64,000 nucleotides of DNA from Pyrinomonadaceae bacterium (GCA_035249365.1 DATFGP010000022.1:192013-256012); one strand, 5' to 3'; positions 2,961-54,547 are shown, counted from the stretch's first letter. Notes: generated from the sequence alone by a model not told the origin. Made by a program: numbers and translations.

Positions 2961-3027
2961 CCATCAGCCATCAGCTATCAGCAAACTCAACCTGTTTGAC
3001 TGACCGCTGATAGCTGGCGGCTGATGG
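2961..3027. repeat. Heptamer-arm palindrome (unit CCATCAG / GCTGATR) in the etfB-etfA spacer
   Basis: Left arm ccatcag-ccatcag-ctatcag-c (2961-2982). Right arm gctgatagctggcggctgatgg (3006-3027) is its imperfect reverse complement. Confidence 0.85.
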
Positions 3028-3028
3028 C

Positions 3029-3802
3029 TTAAAAAATTCTGGCTTCGGTTCGTAATTTTTCCGCGAGTTGGGCGGCTCCGGCTTTGGCGTCGCCGTCGCC
3101 AAGAAATTGCGTCTGTTTGGTCTTTTGCGGGAAGTAGACTTTCGTGACGCGCTGGTGCGCGGCAGCACTCGCGGCATCTGCGGCGGGCGCGACCTCTTTG
3201 ATCTCTTTCTTCTTCGCCGCCATGATGCCCTTCAAACTCGCGTAGCGAATCTGGCTGATGCCGGACTGAATCGTTAAGAGCGCAGGTCGCGTCATCGCGT
3301 ACCATTGATACCAGCCGCTCTCCAATTCGCGCTTCACACGCAACGCGTCGCCCGATGCGTCAACTTCGATCACGATGGTCGCGTGCGGCAATCCCAAAAG
3401 CTCTGCGAGAATGACGCCCGTTTGCGCGTAGCCGTTATCGTCCGACTGCAAACCCGTCAGGACGAGATCGGCCGCTTCGTCTTTGATTGCTTCTGAAAGA
3501 ACTTTCGCCGCAGCATACGGGCCGAGTTGCACTGTGTCGTCAGAGACGACGTGTATGGCGCGGTCAGCCCCGCGTGCGAGCGCATCTTTGATGACGCTCT
3601 TGACGCGTTGCGGCCCCATCGAACAGACGACGACTTCGCCGCCGTGCTTCTCTTTCAAACGCAGAGCCTCTTCGAGCGCGTAGCCGTCCGATTCGTTGAC
3701 CTCGTAGGAGAGATCGCTCTCCTCGATCCACGTCTCGCTTTTGTTTATGCGCAGGATCGCGTCCTTGTTGGCGACCTGCTTCATGAGCACAATTATCTTC
3801 AT
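3029..3802 (-). CDS. etfB: Electron transfer flavoprotein subunit beta
   Basis: 257 aa with a typical 'MKIIVLMKQV' N-terminus and ETF-beta-like sequence throughout. Lies upstream of etfA on the same strand. Confidence 0.92.
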   Translation of the reverse strand: MKIIVLMKQVANKDAILRINKSETWIEESDLSYEVNESDGYALEEALRLKEKHGGEVVVCSMGPQRVKSVIKDALARGADRAIHVVSDDTVQLGPYAAAKVLSEAIKDEAADLVLTGLQSDDNGYAQTGVILAELLGLPHATIVIEVDASGDALRVKRELESGWYQWYAMTRPALLTIQSGISQIRYASLKGIMAAKKKEIKEVAPAADAASAAAHQRVTKVYFPQKTKQTQFLGDGDAKAGAAQLAEKLRTEARIF

Positions 3803-3923
3803 AGTCAGTTGTCAGTTGTCCGTAGTCAGTTGTTTTTTGTCCTTTGTCAGTTGCTCGATTCAATCTTTAGCAACTTGCTTGTCAGTCACATGCAACGGAC
3901 AACGGACTACTGACAACGGACAG
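3803..3923 (-). repeat. B-family heptamer-arm palindrome (unit TGTCMGT/ACKGACA) with conserved core, minus orientation
   Basis: Arms are agtcagt-tgtcagt-tgtccgt-agtcagt... and ...acggaca-acggact-actgaca-acggaca. The central 'caatctttagcaacttg' is the reverse complement of the 'caagttgctaaagatt' core seen at 36.7, 38.7 and 48.1 kb. Confidence 0.9.
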
Positions 3924-3927
3924 TTTT

Positions 3928-52175: not shown

Positions 52176-52249
52176 TAAGCGCATATTTCAACTTTGAAAG
52201 CGGCAGATTTGATAGTGGAATTTTGAAGTTGGTCGGATTTGAAGTAAGT

Positions 52250-52825
52250 ATGTTGAAACTAAGCAAGAGGTTTTATCTCGCTACGGCGTTGCTGCTCGCT
52301 TTGCTCTGCGGCGCATTGCCGCTCGCGGGGTCGCCGCACGCTAATTCAAACGAACGCGTTAGTATTAAGCTCAAGGGCGTTGACGGGAAGACTTACGATG
52401 TGGCCGCGATGCGCGGCGAAGTGGTGCTCGTCTCTTTCGGCGCGACGTGGTGCAAGCCGTGCGCGTGGGAGTTGGAAGCCCTCGAAGAGTTGAAGCGTGA
52501 GTATGCGGGGCGCGGCGTCAAGTTTTTGTGGGTGAGCATTGAGAATGACGATCAAACTTCAAACGAGTTGCTGCGCGATTACGCGAAGTCTCTGAAGATG
52601 ACGATTCCCGTCCTGCGCGATCCTGAAAAGACCGCCTTCGCGCAGTTCAGCGAGCGCGTGCGTCTGCCGATGGTCGTCTTCTTCGACCGCGAAGGGAATT
52701 TCATCCCGCCCAAGCACACGGGCATGACTTCGCAAGCAGAGGATTACAAGAAACTGATCCGCAGCCGTCTCGACCAGATACTCCGCGCCGAAGAGGATGC
52801 GGGCGGCGCGCCCCCGCTGCCGTAA
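52250..52825 (+). CDS. Exported TlpA/ResA-like thiol:disulfide oxidoreductase
   Basis: Signal peptide 'MLKLSKRFYLATALLLALLCGALPLAG' and thioredoxin-fold motif 'FGATWCKPCAWE'. Lies between nuoM and nuoN. Confidence 0.85.
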   Translation: MLKLSKRFYLATALLLALLCGALPLAGSPHANSNERVSIKLKGVDGKTYDVAAMRGEVVLVSFGATWCKPCAWELEALEELKREYAGRGVKFLWVSIENDDQTSNELLRDYAKSLKMTIPVLRDPEKTAFAQFSERVRLPMVVFFDREGNFIPPKHTGMTSQAEDYKKLIRSRLDQILRAEEDAGGAPPLP

Positions 52826-52886
52826 TCATTGTTGCTGTCACCGCTCGCCGTTTGAATTTGACGGCTGTTAGTGCTGAGTTAAAAAG

Positions 52887-54464
52887 ATGAACTTGTGTCT
52901 CGCATTTCAAATTGCTCAGGCCGCGTCGCCTGACATCAATTTCATGCTCATCCTGCCGGAGACGATCATCTCCGTCGTGGGCGTGCTGGTCATGCTCGTC
53001 GATGCGTTCACGCGCCGCTCGAGCCAGCGCTGGGTGACGGGACTGCTCTCGCTCGCGGGACTCGTCGCCGCCGCAGCCGTCTGCATCCTCATGTGGAACG
53101 ATCAGACGACAGCGCGCGAAGCCTTCAACGGAATGATCGTGCTCGATCGCATGCGGCTCTCCTTCACGCTCGTCTTCCTCGTCGTCTCAGCACTCACGGT
53201 GCTCATCTCGATGATCTGGGTCGAATGGGAACACTTGCCTGCGGGCGAGTTTCATTCGCTCCTGATGTTCGCCACCGTCGGCATGACGCTGATGGCTTCG
53301 GGCGGCGACCTCGTGATCATCTTTCTCGGTCTCGAACTACTCTCCATCGCCACCTACGTCATGGCCGGATTCCGACGCACGGATGTGCGCTCGAACGAGT
53401 CCTCGATGAAGTATTTCATACTGGGCGCGTTCTCGTCTGCGTTCCTGCTCTACGGCATCGCGCTCGTCTACGGCGGCACGTCACTCGCAAACGGCGGCGC
53501 GGGCACGACCAACATTAAAGAACTCGCGCTCAGAGTCGGTGCGGAGAACGCTCTGGCCTACCCCGCGCTCCTTTACGCGGGCGCGGCGTTGATGCTCGTC
53601 GGCTTCGGATTCAAGATCGCGACCGCGCCGTTCCACGTCTGGACGCCCGACGTGTACGAGGGCGCGCCTACGCCCGTCACGGCTTTCATGGCCGCCGGGC
53701 CGAAGGCTTCCGGCTTCGCAGCCTTCATGCGCGTCTTCCTCTTCGGCTTCCCCTTCATCGCTGCAACGACGAACGCCGCGCAACTCCATTCCGCATGGAT
53801 GAACGCCCTCTGGCTGCTCGCGATCCTAACGATGTCGGTCGGCAACCTCGCTGCGCTCGTGCAGACGAACGTCAAACGCATGCTCGCCTATTCGTCCATC
53901 GCGCACGCGGGCTACGCGCTAGTCGGCTTCGTCGCGGCGGGACAGGCGCGCGATGAGGCGTTGCAAAATGAAGCCATCGCCGCCGTCGCCTTCTACCTTC
54001 TGGCCTACGCGGTGATGAACCTCGGCGCGTTCGCCGTCGTCACGCTCATCGCGCGCAGCGGCGACCGACGCACGGAGATCGAAGACTACAACGGCATCGG
54101 ATTTACCGCGCCCGCGCTCTCCTTCGCGCTCACGCTTTTTCTACTGAGTTTGCTCGGTATCCCTCTCACCGCAGGATTCATGGGCAAGGTGATGGTCTTC
54201 CGCGCCGCGCTCGATCAAGGCTTCGTCGCGCTCGTCGTCATCGGCGTTCTCAACACTGCGATTTCGGTATACTATTATTTGCGGCTCGTCGTCGTGATGT
54301 TCTTCCGCGAACGCTCGACCGCTTGGAGCGCACCCGCCGTGCCCGTCAGCGTCGCGCTGGCGATCATCATCACGGCGCTCGGCGTGTTTTATCTGGGAAT
54401 TTTTCCGGGTCATGTGTTGGACGCCTTCCGCGACTCGCAACAAGCTGTCAGCCAATTGAAGTGA
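52887..54464 (+). CDS. nuoN: NADH-quinone oxidoreductase subunit N
   Basis: 525 aa with 'GFKIATAPFHVWTPDVYEGAPTPVTAFMA' and 'KRMLAYSSIAHAGY'. The start could instead be an internal Met. The stop TGA (54462-54464) is part of the first repeat unit. Confidence 0.93.
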   Translation: MNLCLAFQIAQAASPDINFMLILPETIISVVGVLVMLVDAFTRRSSQRWVTGLLSLAGLVAAAAVCILMWNDQTTAREAFNGMIVLDRMRLSFTLVFLVVSALTVLISMIWVEWEHLPAGEFHSLLMFATVGMTLMASGGDLVIIFLGLELLSIATYVMAGFRRTDVRSNESSMKYFILGAFSSAFLLYGIALVYGGTSLANGGAGTTNIKELALRVGAENALAYPALLYAGAALMLVGFGFKIATAPFHVWTPDVYEGAPTPVTAFMAAGPKASGFAAFMRVFLFGFPFIAATTNAAQLHSAWMNALWLLAILTMSVGNLAALVQTNVKRMLAYSSIAHAGYALVGFVAAGQARDEALQNEAIAAVAFYLLAYAVMNLGAFAVVTLIARSGDRRTEIEDYNGIGFTAPALSFALTLFLLSLLGIPLTAGFMGKVMVFRAALDQGFVALVVIGVLNTAISVYYYLRLVVVMFFRERSTAWSAPAVPVSVALAIIITALGVFYLGIFPGHVLDAFRDSQQAVSQLK

Positions 54465-54547
54465 CGAGTGACAGGTGACAAGTGACAAGTTAAAGCAAAA
54501 AACTTGTTTTGTTCTTGCTTGTCACTCGTCACTCGTCACTCGTCACT
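54459..54547. repeat. A-family heptamer-arm palindrome
   Basis: aagtgacgagtgacaggtgacaagtgacaag-(28-nt loop)-cttgtcactcgtcactcgtcactcgtcact. It is followed by 'tcttATG', the start of the next gene. Confidence 0.92.

Follow-up and report, generated by a model that had tools for sequence, protein, structure and literature searches.

The window analysed here, a 64-kb stretch of DNA, comes from a metagenome-assembled genome of a soil acidobacterium (Pyrinomonadaceae, Acidobacteriota). A sequence-only reading had listed 17 intergenic palindromes in it, and all 17 were found at their coordinates when the sequence was checked. Tandem Repeats Finder (TRF) detected period-7 arrays in both arms of every listed element, and an inverted-repeat scan showed that these elements are the longest palindromes of the window, with alternative pairing registers offset by 7 nt. 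No additional elements were found in the window at the thresholds used. The features are as follows, with flanking genes named by Pfam, strand given where one was assigned, and predicted RNA folding energies.

2961-3027, minus strand: CCATCAG hairpin in the etfA/etfB spacer (TRF; fold -44 kcal/mol, z = -7.8), "C-first" in having a C-rich 5' arm, as few of the palindromes do
3803-3923, minus strand: family B (TGTCMGT/ACKGACA) hairpin in the fabF/etfB spacer (-45.3 kcal/mol, z = -6.2), its loop oriented along the minus-strand genes
6666-6742: family C (AAGGGGN) hairpin between convergent genes (-47.8 kcal/mol, z = -5.4)
9081-9179: family A (GTGACRA/TYGTCAC) hairpin at the yceD 3' end (-49.3 kcal/mol, z = -9.2), with the yceD stop codon inside the terminal unit and an ambiguous loop orientation
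11026-11112: family A hairpin in the spacer between hbd and a TPR-protein gene (-48.4 kcal/mol, z = -9.7)
13720-13804: family A hairpin upstream of a minus-strand thiolase start (-56.6 kcal/mol, z = -10.8)
18924-19041: family C element between convergent fpg and DPP-IV peptidase genes (-74.8 kcal/mol, z = -9.9), a nested palindrome with family C arms around an inner GC-rich hairpin
21275-21335: GCTAAYA array with a degenerate partner arm, weak (TRF; fold z = -1.7)
21663-21749, plus strand: family A hairpin in the 5' leader of a metH-like/MTHFR gene (-47.9 kcal/mol, z = -10.8), preceded by a SAM-II riboswitch with a T8 run and followed by the start codon
23701-23795: near-perfect palindrome with ~44 bp arms and irregular CGCAGAG units (-95 kcal/mol, z = -17)
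28989-29428, plus strand: gene-bearing cassette of A left arm, IVP gene and A right arm (inverted-repeat scan, Pfam, folding)
28989-29019, plus strand: left (G-rich) family A arm of the cassette
29005-29382, plus strand: IVP gene, 125 aa (PF05635, TIGR02436)
29393-29425, plus strand: right (C-rich) family A arm of the cassette
36661-36759, plus strand: family B hairpin filling the nuoB-nuoC spacer (-43.4 kcal/mol, z = -5.9)
37305-37416, plus strand: family A hairpin filling the nuoC-nuoD spacer (-41.6 kcal/mol, z = -5.7)
38638-38731, plus strand: family B hairpin filling the nuoD-nuoE spacer (-33.8 kcal/mol, z = -3.5)
45788-45886, plus strand: GGGATGA hairpin filling the nuoG-nuoH spacer (-51.9 kcal/mol, z = -5.8), with AAGGAGG at its 5' base
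48058-48179, plus strand: family B hairpin filling the nuoK-nuoL spacer (-55.8 kcal/mol, z = -7.3)
54459-54547, plus strand: family A hairpin after nuoN (-57.2 kcal/mol, z = -11.4), with the nuoN TGA stop in the first unit and the next ATG 4 nt past the last unit

Among the 43 spacers of at least 25 nt (6,715 nt in total), we counted 21 period-7 tracts, defined by at least 17 of 21 matches, while periods 4-6 and 8-12 yielded none in the same spacers at the same threshold. No period-7 tract was found in 57 kb of coding sequence or in 200 dinucleotide-preserving shuffles (21 vs 0). The elements occupy 1,952 nt, about 29% of the spacer DNA of the window, and lie in spacers only. Divergent promoter spacers are empty of them, except for two in the spacer 21261-21756, one in a 5' leader. 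Overall, the window contains a single complete cassette with its gene, plus about 15 hairpins that lack a gene and belong to at least six unit families, which bears out the view that multiple families have one common architecture. Classical GC-rich terminators occur separately, at 1906-1938, 30828-30870 and 56104-56155.

Some details of the sequence-only reading needed adjustment. The CAGTGAC termini ascribed to family A were found in three of the seven copies, while the others start with AAGTGAC; at 21275-21335 the GCTAAYA array is present, but its hairpin is weak and asymmetric. The suspicion that 23701-23795 is not strictly of period 7 was correct: its CGCAGAG units recur at intervals of 8-11 nt, and it is therefore not a heptamer array. 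This palindrome nevertheless resembles the heptamer hairpins in style. The element at 28989-29428, taken for a long spacer copy of family A, is actually two A arms around a 125-codon gene.

As RNA, 15 of 16 tested elements fold into a single long hairpin, with energies from -34 to -95 kcal/mol and z-scores from -3.5 to -17. The hairpins span the stop-to-start gap between housekeeping genes, the predicted stems starting near the stop codon and ending near the start codon. Of 31 genes downstream of a hairpin, only 1 has a Shine-Dalgarno-like motif ahead of it, as compared to 36 of 109 other genes (p = 4e-4). The copy at 13720-13804, which reads on the minus strand as hairpin, T8, AAGGAG and thiolase start codon, is the only one to combine a terminator-like T run with a Shine-Dalgarno motif. 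Sense and antisense strands did not differ in fold energy or G-U content (18 vs 20; p = 0.73); selection at the RNA level on the transcribed strand is therefore unsupported, and the symmetry of the arms could stem from recognition at the DNA level.

The cassette sits between a gene for a 1648-aa surface protein and zapA. Its open reading frame (29005-29382) belongs to PF05635 (23S_rRNA_IVP; E = 1.9e-39), scores 126.8 bits against TIGR02436 and matches PDB 2GSC (E = 5e-27), while its 34.6 bits against NF033474, the model for Avd of diversity-generating retroelements (DGRs), fall below the cut-off of 80. [quoted passage not shown] The last units of the left arm encode its N-terminus, MTSDE, including the GTG start codon, and the arms pair over the 370-nt interior in MFE and centroid folds alike. 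An orthologous cassette was found in L120. Estimates among homologues (dN/dS ~0.11, dS >2) place the gene under strong purifying selection.

We then compared metagenomic loci selected by IVP protein similarity alone. A period-7 tract, in GTGACRA-type arrays, lies within 150 nt of the IVP gene in 71 of 80 loci, and 116 of the 143 period-7 tracts in these loci fall within that distance; periods 5, 6, 8, 9 and 10 gave 0, 4, 2, 1 and 0 tracts, respectively. Inverted arms span the IVP gene, the only gene systematically enclosed by them, in 24 of 27 independent flank contexts. The cassette with family A arms is present in at least 27 distinct genomic contexts and extends to a second phylum if homologues are assigned by their source names, and it is co-oriented with its upstream neighbour in 54 of 68 cases. 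The two arms covary, with a mean mismatch of 0.60 with the true partner vs 1.10 with shuffled partners, a value reached in 0 of 5000 permutations. In 107 of the 113 inverted pairs the 5' arm is G-rich, with its G-rich strand pointing (5' to 3') at the dyad; 11 of the 12 unit super-families likewise have a G-rich 5' arm. The arms retain their GTGAC core despite dS >2 in the IVP gene; conserved arms beside saturated synonymous sites suggest sequence-specific recognition of the heptamers.

Distant IVP genes carry other heptamers. Ten plasmid-borne IVP genes with 36-54% identity (from Nostoc, Anabaena, Calothrix, Geminocystis, Pseudanabaena, Picosynechococcus, Gemmatirosa and Azospirillum) are each flanked by their own short tandem arrays, which in most are inverted copies of each other; the arrays at the cyanobacterial IVP genes examined are STRR-like. 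Flanking period-7 tracts are present in 33 of 59 IVP loci from IMG/VR (periods 5, 6, 8 and 9: 0, 2, 3 and 1 loci), and arms are undetectable at about 44% of these distant IVP genes. The period is 7, sometimes 8, while the unit sequence varies. Units in IMG/VR include GTAGTCN (B-like), CTGCGGA and GCTGTTGGC, which also form gene-less hairpins in Pyrinomonadaceae, the IVP link of non-A families being one of unit similarity and not of copies within one genome. B-like units, TGCGGA, GCTGTTRGC, GGGA-type units and AAGGGAA also stand on both sides of IVP homologues elsewhere. A GGGAATC-type array of four units in Xanthomonas overlaps the XCC0516 start codon, XCC0516 being the PF05635 protein of PDB 2GSC.

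In five related genomes, heptamer-arm hairpins occupy the same nuo spacers with different unit families, and the architecture thus persists while primary sequence changes, as had been proposed. For example, the nuoC-nuoD spacer holds family A in the window and four other unit families in four relatives. The GGGATGA family of the nuoG-nuoH spacer also occupies that spacer in L202 and L203, and L200 has orthologous copies of the family B hairpins of nuoK-nuoL and nuoB-nuoC. The latter is one unit shorter than the window copy, differing on one arm only; such whole-unit indels indicate that slippage acts within arrays. Hairpins are also nested within the loops of other hairpins. Within one genome, each family is a dispersed repeat whose copies have both loop and arm sequence in common. 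There were no target-site duplications at the elements, no clean pairs of filled and empty sites among the orthologous spacers of relatives, where entire spacers differ, and no transposase, reverse transcriptase, RAYT or integrase encoded in the window. In L202, the interior between A arms is not recognisable as a remnant of an IVP gene, and a junction profile from all cassettes was uninformative on how short elements derive. A short TTRAARAC motif adjoins the left arm in the closest cassettes; this motif and the common arms suggest that the short elements may derive from cassettes.

These results indicate that the same inverted, STRR-type architecture brackets PF05635/TIGR02436 genes across many phyla. 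The arms of family A form the inverted cassette ends, and other IVP lineages have other heptamers, some of which equal units of the gene-less families. Since the arms recur at homologous genes elsewhere, the families are better explained as diverged lineages of a single type of copied element, and less well as inventions made independently at each locus. The window elements are best read as one class of small palindromic DNA element whose two inverted arms each consist of some 4-5 heptanucleotides in tandem, and we consider it probable that they are REP/MITE-like palindromes, gene-less relatives of IVP cassettes, that form long RNA stems.

Alternatively, the arrays could be iterons that bind a sequence-specific nucleic-acid-binding regulator, possibly an IVP pentamer, with fixed-spacer hairpins tuning operon expression through coupling, stability or processing as host control rather than mobile DNA. 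Hairpins that stay in the same nuo spacers of five relatives while their sequences turn over, downstream genes that lack Shine-Dalgarno motifs, arm conservation beyond neutral-site expectation, strong purifying selection on the IVP gene and the consistently G-rich 5' arm all agree with such a regulator. However, the swapping of an unrelated family into one site fits a sequence-specific factor poorly, at least six families face a single IVP gene in 64 kb, and the IVP family has no known sequence-specific binding, which leaves this explanation unlikely.

We regard as more doubtful still that the elements are local microsatellites, in which slippage expands 7-nt units and hairpin selection or templated repair symmetrises the arms, so that families originate independently at each locus. 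This was the sequence-only reading. In its favour are the one-arm, whole-unit difference at nuoB-nuoC, the pairing registers shifted by 7 nt, and the report that heptanucleotides are the commonest long simple-sequence repeats in many bacteria, with polymerase slippage proposed as their cause (Mrazek 2007, as cited in PMC4679880). An in-place process without mobile spread is nevertheless contradicted by families dispersed with common loops and arms, and by family A arms forming the ends of a gene cassette in at least 27 contexts. Loop sequence, and not just units, is common to copies at separate loci; in at least 24 unrelated contexts a conserved gene comes with identical arm families, which by source names extends to a second phylum; and the same unit families flank IVP genes on unrelated contigs. 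Slippage as the sole process is largely refuted by the common loops and the recurring IVP-flanking arms.

It is very improbable that these are REP/BIME-type elements moved by a RAYT (Y1 transposase) whose gene lies elsewhere in the genome. Many extragenic palindromes in transcribed regions, lineage-specific families, different families at orthologous spacers and the lack of target-site duplications would fit, but tandem-unit arms of 28-35 nt are unlike REPs, the conserved GTAG/CTAC head is absent, no PF01797 gene occurs in the window or the fetched flanks, and IVP is the sole gene systematically within the arms. There is hardly any prospect that the elements are ordinary intrinsic terminators or attenuators: the convergent-gene positions of 6666-6742 and 18924-19041 and the T8 after 13720-13804 are terminator-like, but most elements lie inside nuo and other operons and have no U run, their stems are 2-3 times the length of terminator stems, and the window has separate classical ones. 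Equally remote is templated repeat addition, in which an Avd-like protein with a reverse transcriptase would add the same G-rich heptamer to the two 3' ends at a break, telomerase-like, and rejoining with or without an insert would leave an inverted array; the G-rich strand pointing at the dyad, the homology of IVP to Avd, the DGR reverse-transcriptase cofactor (PMC10053308), and a period fixed at 7, occasionally 8, with variable sequence agree with it, but it is purely speculative, no reverse transcriptase lies nearby, and loops conserved per family point to whole elements being copied, not rebuilt.

STRR and REP/BIME had been named as the nearest analogues, and this comparison is fair. STRR are likewise intergenic tandem heptanucleotides with several units per genome and no known function. 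Their units include CCCCAGT, TTGGTCA and CAACAGT. They are defined in heterocystous cyanobacteria (Nostocales) and described as direct arrays, whereas the window elements have an acidobacterial host, different units and arrays of about 4-5 units that come as inverted pairs; the literature searched describes no link of STRR to a gene. REP/BIME are also abundant extragenic palindromes of transcribed spacers with lineage-specific families, and their loops can be insertion targets, as IS1397 inserts into REP loops. The window elements differ in having no RAYT, no GTAG head and tandem-heptamer arms about twice as long, and their associated gene encodes a predicted four-helix-bundle protein without known catalytic activity.

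The intervening sequences (IVS) of 23S rRNA in Coxiella and Leptospira resemble the cassette in that inverted ends form a stem around a PF05635 ORF. In Coxiella, GACAGAT units, three or four depending on the strain, are found ahead of the S23p ORF (GACAGAT x3), the first repeat being an RNase III cut site (PMC4990558). IVS are located in helix 25 or 45 of 23S rRNA, whereas the window cassette and hairpins lie in mRNA spacers, and the Coxiella ORF is decaying while the window IVP is under purifying selection. Xanthomonas GGGAATC repeats are also intergenic and mostly of four units, with 70-75 convergent inverted pairs per genome and potential stem-loops (Rehm et al. 2015, PMC4692102). They form a single G-rich family, in contrast to the many coexisting families of the window, some not G-rich, and were read as G-quadruplex-forming; no mobile-element association was found and the IVP link was unnoticed by the authors (PMC4692102). 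TAACTGA repeats of Beggiatoaceae, cyanobacteria and Bacteroidetes, one base different from the family B unit CAACTGA, likewise lie a few nt upstream of starts, in leaders with no Shine-Dalgarno motif, and are patchy across phyla, but they are nearly all direct (1 inverted case in 170) and were interpreted as binding sites of a translational regulator (MacGregor 2015, PMC4679880). Tandem arrays of four or five heptamers recur as multicopy elements in Geobacter metallireducens, some in inverted pairs; unlike those of the window, they include copies inside genes and have no reported gene association, and they were annotated as putative global-regulator binding sites or RNA elements (PMC2700814).

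Under the preferred reading of the elements as relatives of IVP cassettes, the gene-less hairpins would be non-autonomous, like REP or MITE, arising as deletion derivatives or spreading in trans, and new copies would favour resident hairpins by inserting into or replacing them. In the transcript, the arms would pair into a stem of about 25-35 bp with any insert looped out, bringing the upstream stop near the downstream start codon, and genes that lack a Shine-Dalgarno motif could be translated by coupling, once a ribosome arriving from the upstream gene has opened the stem. To judge from rRNA intervening sequences, the stems are probably RNase III substrates; cleavage and coupling would be partly in conflict if both occur. 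A heptamer-recognising factor may co-evolve with the arms, the simplest candidate being IVP itself. The link of inverted heptamer arrays to the small, widespread IVP gene gives a concrete starting point for explaining bacterial heptamer repeats, a long-standing puzzle.

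In the sequence-only reading, the arms of these intergenic palindromes had been described as tandem copies of a 7-nt unit, and Tandem Repeats Finder reported arrays of period 7 on the two arms of each element. Reading the coordinates showed the architecture as claimed, with inverted arms of 3-5 heptamers each and a short centre between them. An inverted-repeat scan returned these elements as the longest palindromes of the window and also recovered pairings displaced by one unit. We found 21 period-7 tracts in the spacers (6,715 nt) and none at periods 4-6 and 8-12. The period-7 tracts are specific to spacers, as none occurred in 57 kb of coding DNA or in 200 dinucleotide shuffles. 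About 29% of the spacer DNA of the window is made of elements, and 15 of the 16 elements examined were predicted to fold as RNA into one long hairpin (-34 to -95 kcal/mol, z = -3.5 to -17). Two elements held up in part: the GCTAAYA element at 21275 is present, but its array is weak, and the palindrome at 23701-23795 is near-perfect, with arms of ~44 bp, but its CGCAGAG units are irregular, lying 8-11 nt apart.

Features of the window referred to in the text
21525-21756: SAM-II riboswitch in an acidobacterial genome, followed by T8, a family A hairpin and the start codon of a fusion gene (homocysteine S-methyltransferase/MTHFR)
23701-23795: near-perfect palindrome downstream of a metH-like gene, -95 kcal/mol as RNA
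28989-29428 (+): cassette of a family A left arm, a gene and a family A right arm
29005-29382 (+): the gene of the cassette, encoding a four-helix-bundle protein (IVP)
40723-43465: three low-GC genes (region GC 0.48 vs 0.59) between nuoF and nuoG, with NUDIX hydrolase, unknown and AIRS/PurM-like products
45893-47730: nuoH-nuoJ interval, from which nuoI is absent
52250-52825: redoxin/AhpC-type gene between nuoM and nuoN
59951-60520: 189-codon ORF with GC3 0.42 and no Pfam match in otherwise high-GC surroundings, which may be foreign DNA

All elements of the window are confined to spacers, most of them between co-directional genes of operons and some between convergent genes. The surrounding genes have housekeeping roles (etfAB, fabF, fabH, plsX, yceD, hbd, thiolase, fpg, and zapA), and six elements lie inside the nuo (complex I) operon or at its end; the nuo cluster comprises 14 genes. 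Divergent promoter spacers carry no elements, with the exception of spacer 21261-21756, which holds the weak 21275 array and a copy in a 5' leader, 3' of the SAM-II riboswitch. The order of riboswitch, T8, hairpin and start codon means that the family A hairpin separates the riboswitch from its expected target gene. This riboswitch (SAM_alpha, 21525-21600) was the sole window match to Rfam at gathering score, and the elements match no curated RNA family. An alphaproteobacterial origin, which the name of this match might suggest, was rejected: the window belongs to a metagenomic contig, and its NuoD is 100% identical to that of a metagenome-assembled Pyrinomonadaceae (Acidobacteriota) genome. 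The nuoF-nuoG junction is a variable accessory-gene slot within the complex I operon. Its content differs among the syntenic nuo loci of five relatives (L200-L204): HicAB is found in L201, small unknown ORFs occupy it in L202 and L203, and L200 and L204 have no insert there. The NUDIX protein encoded at this junction in the window gave a weak PADLOC candidate match (PDC-S07, E = 8e-7).

The 28989-29428 feature had been counted as a 440-bp spacer copy of family A (units GTGACRA/TYGTCAC); instead, two family A arms enclose a 125-codon ORF. The encoded protein matches PF05635 (E = 1.9e-39, 134.6 bits against a cut-off of 33.8) and TIGR02436, "four helix bundle protein" (126.8 bits against 24), and the nearest relative with a solved structure is Xanthomonas XCC0516 (PDB 2GSC, E = 5e-27). 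It resembles Avd, the accessory protein of diversity-generating retroelements (DGR), but its scores against NF033474, the equivalog model (34.6 bits, cut-off 80), and PF22296 (33.3 bits, cut-off 40) are below the cut-offs and no reverse transcriptase was found in the window; a search with PADLOC gave no anti-phage defence match for it. The neighbours of the cassette are a surface-protein gene and zapA. Its arms are predicted to pair across the 370-nt interior in a closing stem of ~29 bp, which is seen in the MFE fold of 28975-29445 as well as in the centroid fold.

The arms also contribute codons to the genes that they adjoin. The last two left-arm units of the closest cassettes code for the N-terminal MTSDE and include the GTG start codon, and the TGA of the first unit is often the stop codon of the host gene upstream. 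The GTGAC unit supplies TGA stops to upstream host genes and a GTG start to the IVP gene (54462-54464, 9174-9176, and 29005-29007 in the window; fetched loci L127, L132, and L136). Seven is not divisible by 3, so that a run of three units offers such start and stop codons in every reading frame, and gene callers will set starts and stops within the repeats.

The association between arms and gene was evaluated in 80 metagenomic loci, which were picked solely because they encode a protein 65-88% identical to the window IVP. A period-7 tract lies within 150 nt of the IVP gene in 71 of them, and 116 of their 143 period-7 tracts adjoin this gene; tracts at periods 5, 6, 8, 9, and 10 numbered 0, 4, 2, 1, and 0, respectively. 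Arms were present in 24 of 27 independent genomic contexts, with GTGACRA-type units upstream and their reverse complement downstream, and the cassette is co-oriented with the upstream gene in 54 of 68 cases. The two arms covary: at 55 loci, the mismatch was 0.60 with the true partner as compared to 1.10 with shuffled partners (0 of 5000 permutations), and unit variants such as GTGGCAA change together on both arms. The IVP gene has a dN/dS of ~0.11 with saturated dS. Since the GTGAC core of the arms is kept despite saturated synonymous sites, the arm sequence itself is constrained, beyond its ability to pair. No other IVP subfamilies were found in the fetched Pyrinomonadaceae loci. Exact (GTGACRN)x3-GTGAC arrays were found, among the matches listed (L002-L119), in Pyrinomonadaceae, Verrucomicrobiota, Chloroflexota, Cyanobacteria, Bacteroidales, Planctomycetota, and Thermoanaerobaculia; a few further records are from Streptomyces, Shewanella, and Alcanivorax, and the arrays in these could be coding repeats.

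More distant IVP genes are accompanied by arrays of their own. A tblastn search of plasmids with the IVP returned 28 records, mostly from Nostocales, and we looked at ten genes of 36-54% identity. All ten are flanked by their own short tandem array, the two sides being inverted copies in most; examples of the units are GGGAGTA/TCCCTAC, ACAGGTG/TGTCACC, TTAGCTG/AGCTAAA, AAGGGAA/TTTCCCT, and GGGAACA/TGTTCCC, with units of GGACNGA type in Azospirillum. The exceptions were arrays of period 8 in Gemmatirosa and Picosynechococcus and direct arrays in Pseudanabaena. On cyanobacterial plasmids, the IVP gene was also seen within CRISPR-cas operons, each time with its own flanking repeat arrays (L206 1489-1857, L209 1492-1851, and L211 1489-1845); the order is cas6-IVP-cas4 in Anabaena sp. 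90 and Pseudanabaena and cmr2-IVP-cmr3 in Picosynechococcus. Among 59 IMG/VR loci retrieved with an alignment of these IVP proteins, 33 have flanking period-7 tracts, 18 of them on both sides, and loci with tracts at periods 5, 6, 8, and 9 numbered 0, 2, 3, and 1. Three of the IMG/VR flank units, GTAGTCN (similar to family B), CTGCGGA, and GCTGTTGGC, are also units of gene-less hairpins in Pyrinomonadaceae nuo spacers.

The syntenic nuo loci of the five relatives (NuoD identity 87-98%) show how the hairpins turn over. Across these loci, nearly all of the B-C, C-D, D-E, G-H, and K-L spacers hold a heptamer-arm hairpin, and the unit family varies; for example, the nuoC-D spacer has units of GTGACAA in the window, TGCGGAT in L200, GTTTCAG in L201, GTCTCAA in L202, and TTTTAGA in L204, while L203 has no heptamer hairpin there. 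The same family recurs at several spacers of one genome, with its loop shared as well. Where orthologous copies belong to one family, they differ by whole units in one arm only. In L071, L026, and L200, a complete hairpin of one family is nested in the loop of another, with family A arms around a full hairpin of GTGAATC/AATCGTG or AATGGTA type (L071 20-200, L026 4695-4875, and L200 1940-2080), which suggests hairpin loops as insertion sites for other hairpins. The window element at 18924 likewise encloses a GC-rich hairpin. An alignment of orthologous spacers, proposed earlier as a way to find empty sites, gave no clean empty/filled pair among the five relatives, as whole spacers have been replaced. 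All this is consistent with copying from one site to another, in which resident hairpins are favoured for landing or replacement, together with slippage within arrays. A separate origin of the repeats in place at each site does not fit the pattern. Of two possible traces of descent from cassettes, the junction profile was uninformative on whether short elements are deletion derivatives, because cassette leaders differ between contexts, and the interior between the A arms of L202 showed no similarity to an IVP gene that would make it a decayed copy.

The intervening sequence of 23S rRNA shares with the window cassette the inverted ends that form a long stem and the PF05635 ORF. The cassette differs in location, lying in an mRNA spacer and not in helix 25 or 45 of 23S rRNA, and the window contains no rRNA. 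Structurally, the elements are the stem of an S23p-type intervening sequence, set in mRNA spacers instead of rRNA. The elements resemble the STRR repeats in being intergenic tandem heptanucleotides with period 7 on every arm; however, their host is a member of the Pyrinomonadaceae and not a heterocystous cyanobacterium, and the STRR1-3 units are absent, the window units being GTGACRA, TGTCMGT, AAGGGGN, GGGATGA, CCATCAG, and GCTAAYA. They are thus STRR-like in unit structure without being cyanobacterial STRR.

Like REP/BIME, the elements are extragenic imperfect palindromes within transcription units, whereas their arms are 28-35 nt of tandem units (a REP unit has ~20-40 nt) with termini CAGTGAC or AAGTGAC and no conserved GTAG/CTAC head, CTAC preceding only two of the seven A copies. 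Among the window proteins scanned, none matched RAYT (Y1 transposase, PF01797), and the sole gene enclosed by arms is that of PF05635. A MITE would be expected to differ in two respects: the elements have no target-site duplications at their ends, and their gene-bearing form encodes a four-helix-bundle protein and not a transposase; no transposase, reverse transcriptase, RAYT, or integrase was found among the scanned proteins. The elements work like REP/BIME or MITE, yet the features that define these two classes, RAYT, GTAG head, target-site duplication, and transposase, are all missing. With regard to attC sites, the window has no integron integrase. Intrinsic terminators can be set aside, as the arms (23-60 nt, with a median of 34 base pairs around the centre in 33 spacer hairpins) are far longer than terminator stems, a clear T run follows only the 13720-13804 element, and classical GC-rich terminators are present separately in the window.

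We also considered what the hairpins might do in the transcript. The elements fill their spacers. The predicted stems start near the stop codon (median -3 nt) and finish near the start codon (median +2 nt), although this measure is noisy, and a Shine-Dalgarno-like motif precedes one of 31 genes 3' of a hairpin as compared to 36 of 109 other genes (p = 4e-4). Such a stem would set the stop beside the start and cover the start region, and downstream translation would then hinge on the upstream ribosome opening the stem, as in classical translational coupling. Coupling of this kind would also account for the tolerance of hairpin insertions in an operon that has to supply its products in equal amounts. 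RNase III cutting of rRNA intervening sequences is established, and near-perfect duplexes of 25-35 bp would likewise be expected to be RNase III substrates.

Evidence from orientation was less informative. A function in RNA only, read from an asymmetry between sense and antisense folds, was not supported, as the two strands fold equally well (18 vs 20, p = 0.73). The loops of family A agreed with the genes in six of six copies by eye, but they are partly palindromic and two or three copies are ambiguous, so this was not retained; those of family B (units TGTCMGT/ACKGACA) agreed robustly in four of four, too few for significance. A G-rich 5' arm faces a C-rich 3' arm in 107 of 113 inverted pairs and in 11 of 12 unit super-families. 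For palindromes this rule is strand-symmetric and hence uninformative on orientation relative to genes, and it was dropped as evidence of that kind. The rule may stem from a need to avoid exposed C-rich RNA, or Shine-Dalgarno-like sequence beside start codons; alternatively, it could be a relic of array manufacture. The cumulative GC skew has its minimum at ~28-32 kb and gene orientation changes from mostly minus to mostly plus at ~35.3 kb; this region (about 28000-35500) could correspond to an origin or a terminus of replication and would confound any test of element orientation against transcription.

Links to heptamer repeats can also be found in published data. The 23S intervening sequence of Coxiella has three to four copies of GACAGAT right before the S23p ORF, and RNase III cuts at the first repeat (PMC4990558). 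A four-unit array of GGGAATC type that overlaps the start codon of XCC0516 is listed in the supplement of Rehm et al., who made no connection between the two (PMC4692102). Among searchable papers, except for the Coxiella paper, none linked S23p/four-helix-bundle genes with heptamer repeats in general or described such repeats in Acidobacteria.

Taken together, the elements are lineage-wide, multi-family palindromic repeats with tandem-heptamer arms. They are not new in kind, since inverted four-unit heptamer pairs have already been described in Xanthomonas. The apparent novelty lies in how abundant and diverse they are in Acidobacteriota, in their turnover at fixed spacers of operons, and most of all in a systematic association with PF05635 genes across phyla. 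It is possible, and we suggest it tentatively as an idea that could well prove wrong, that PF05635/TIGR02436 (IVS/Avd-like) genes with flanking inverted heptamer arrays form an unrecognised cross-phylum class of cassettes, that cyanobacterial STRR, Xanthomonas GGGAATC repeats, Acidobacteriota hairpins, and Coxiella IVS repeats are gene-less derivatives, and that the protein reads the arrays in a 7-nt register and drives or licenses their propagation or processing.

Because hairpins make up ~29% of the spacer DNA of a housekeeping region, including six spacers inside the complex I operon or at its end, they are likely to matter for expression, through mRNA processing and coupled translation, and also for gene calling. 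Heptanucleotide tandem repeats are in excess in bacterial genomes, and we know of no function assigned to STRR, known since 1990. To our knowledge, the very large "four helix bundle / S23 / IVS" family likewise has no known role outside diversity-generating retroelements, and we are aware of no explanation for the origin of 23S rRNA intervening sequences. If the arrays and the protein are indeed one system, it would join these three problems, the heptamer excess with STRR, the role of the IVP family, and the origin of intervening sequences, and all three would become testable.
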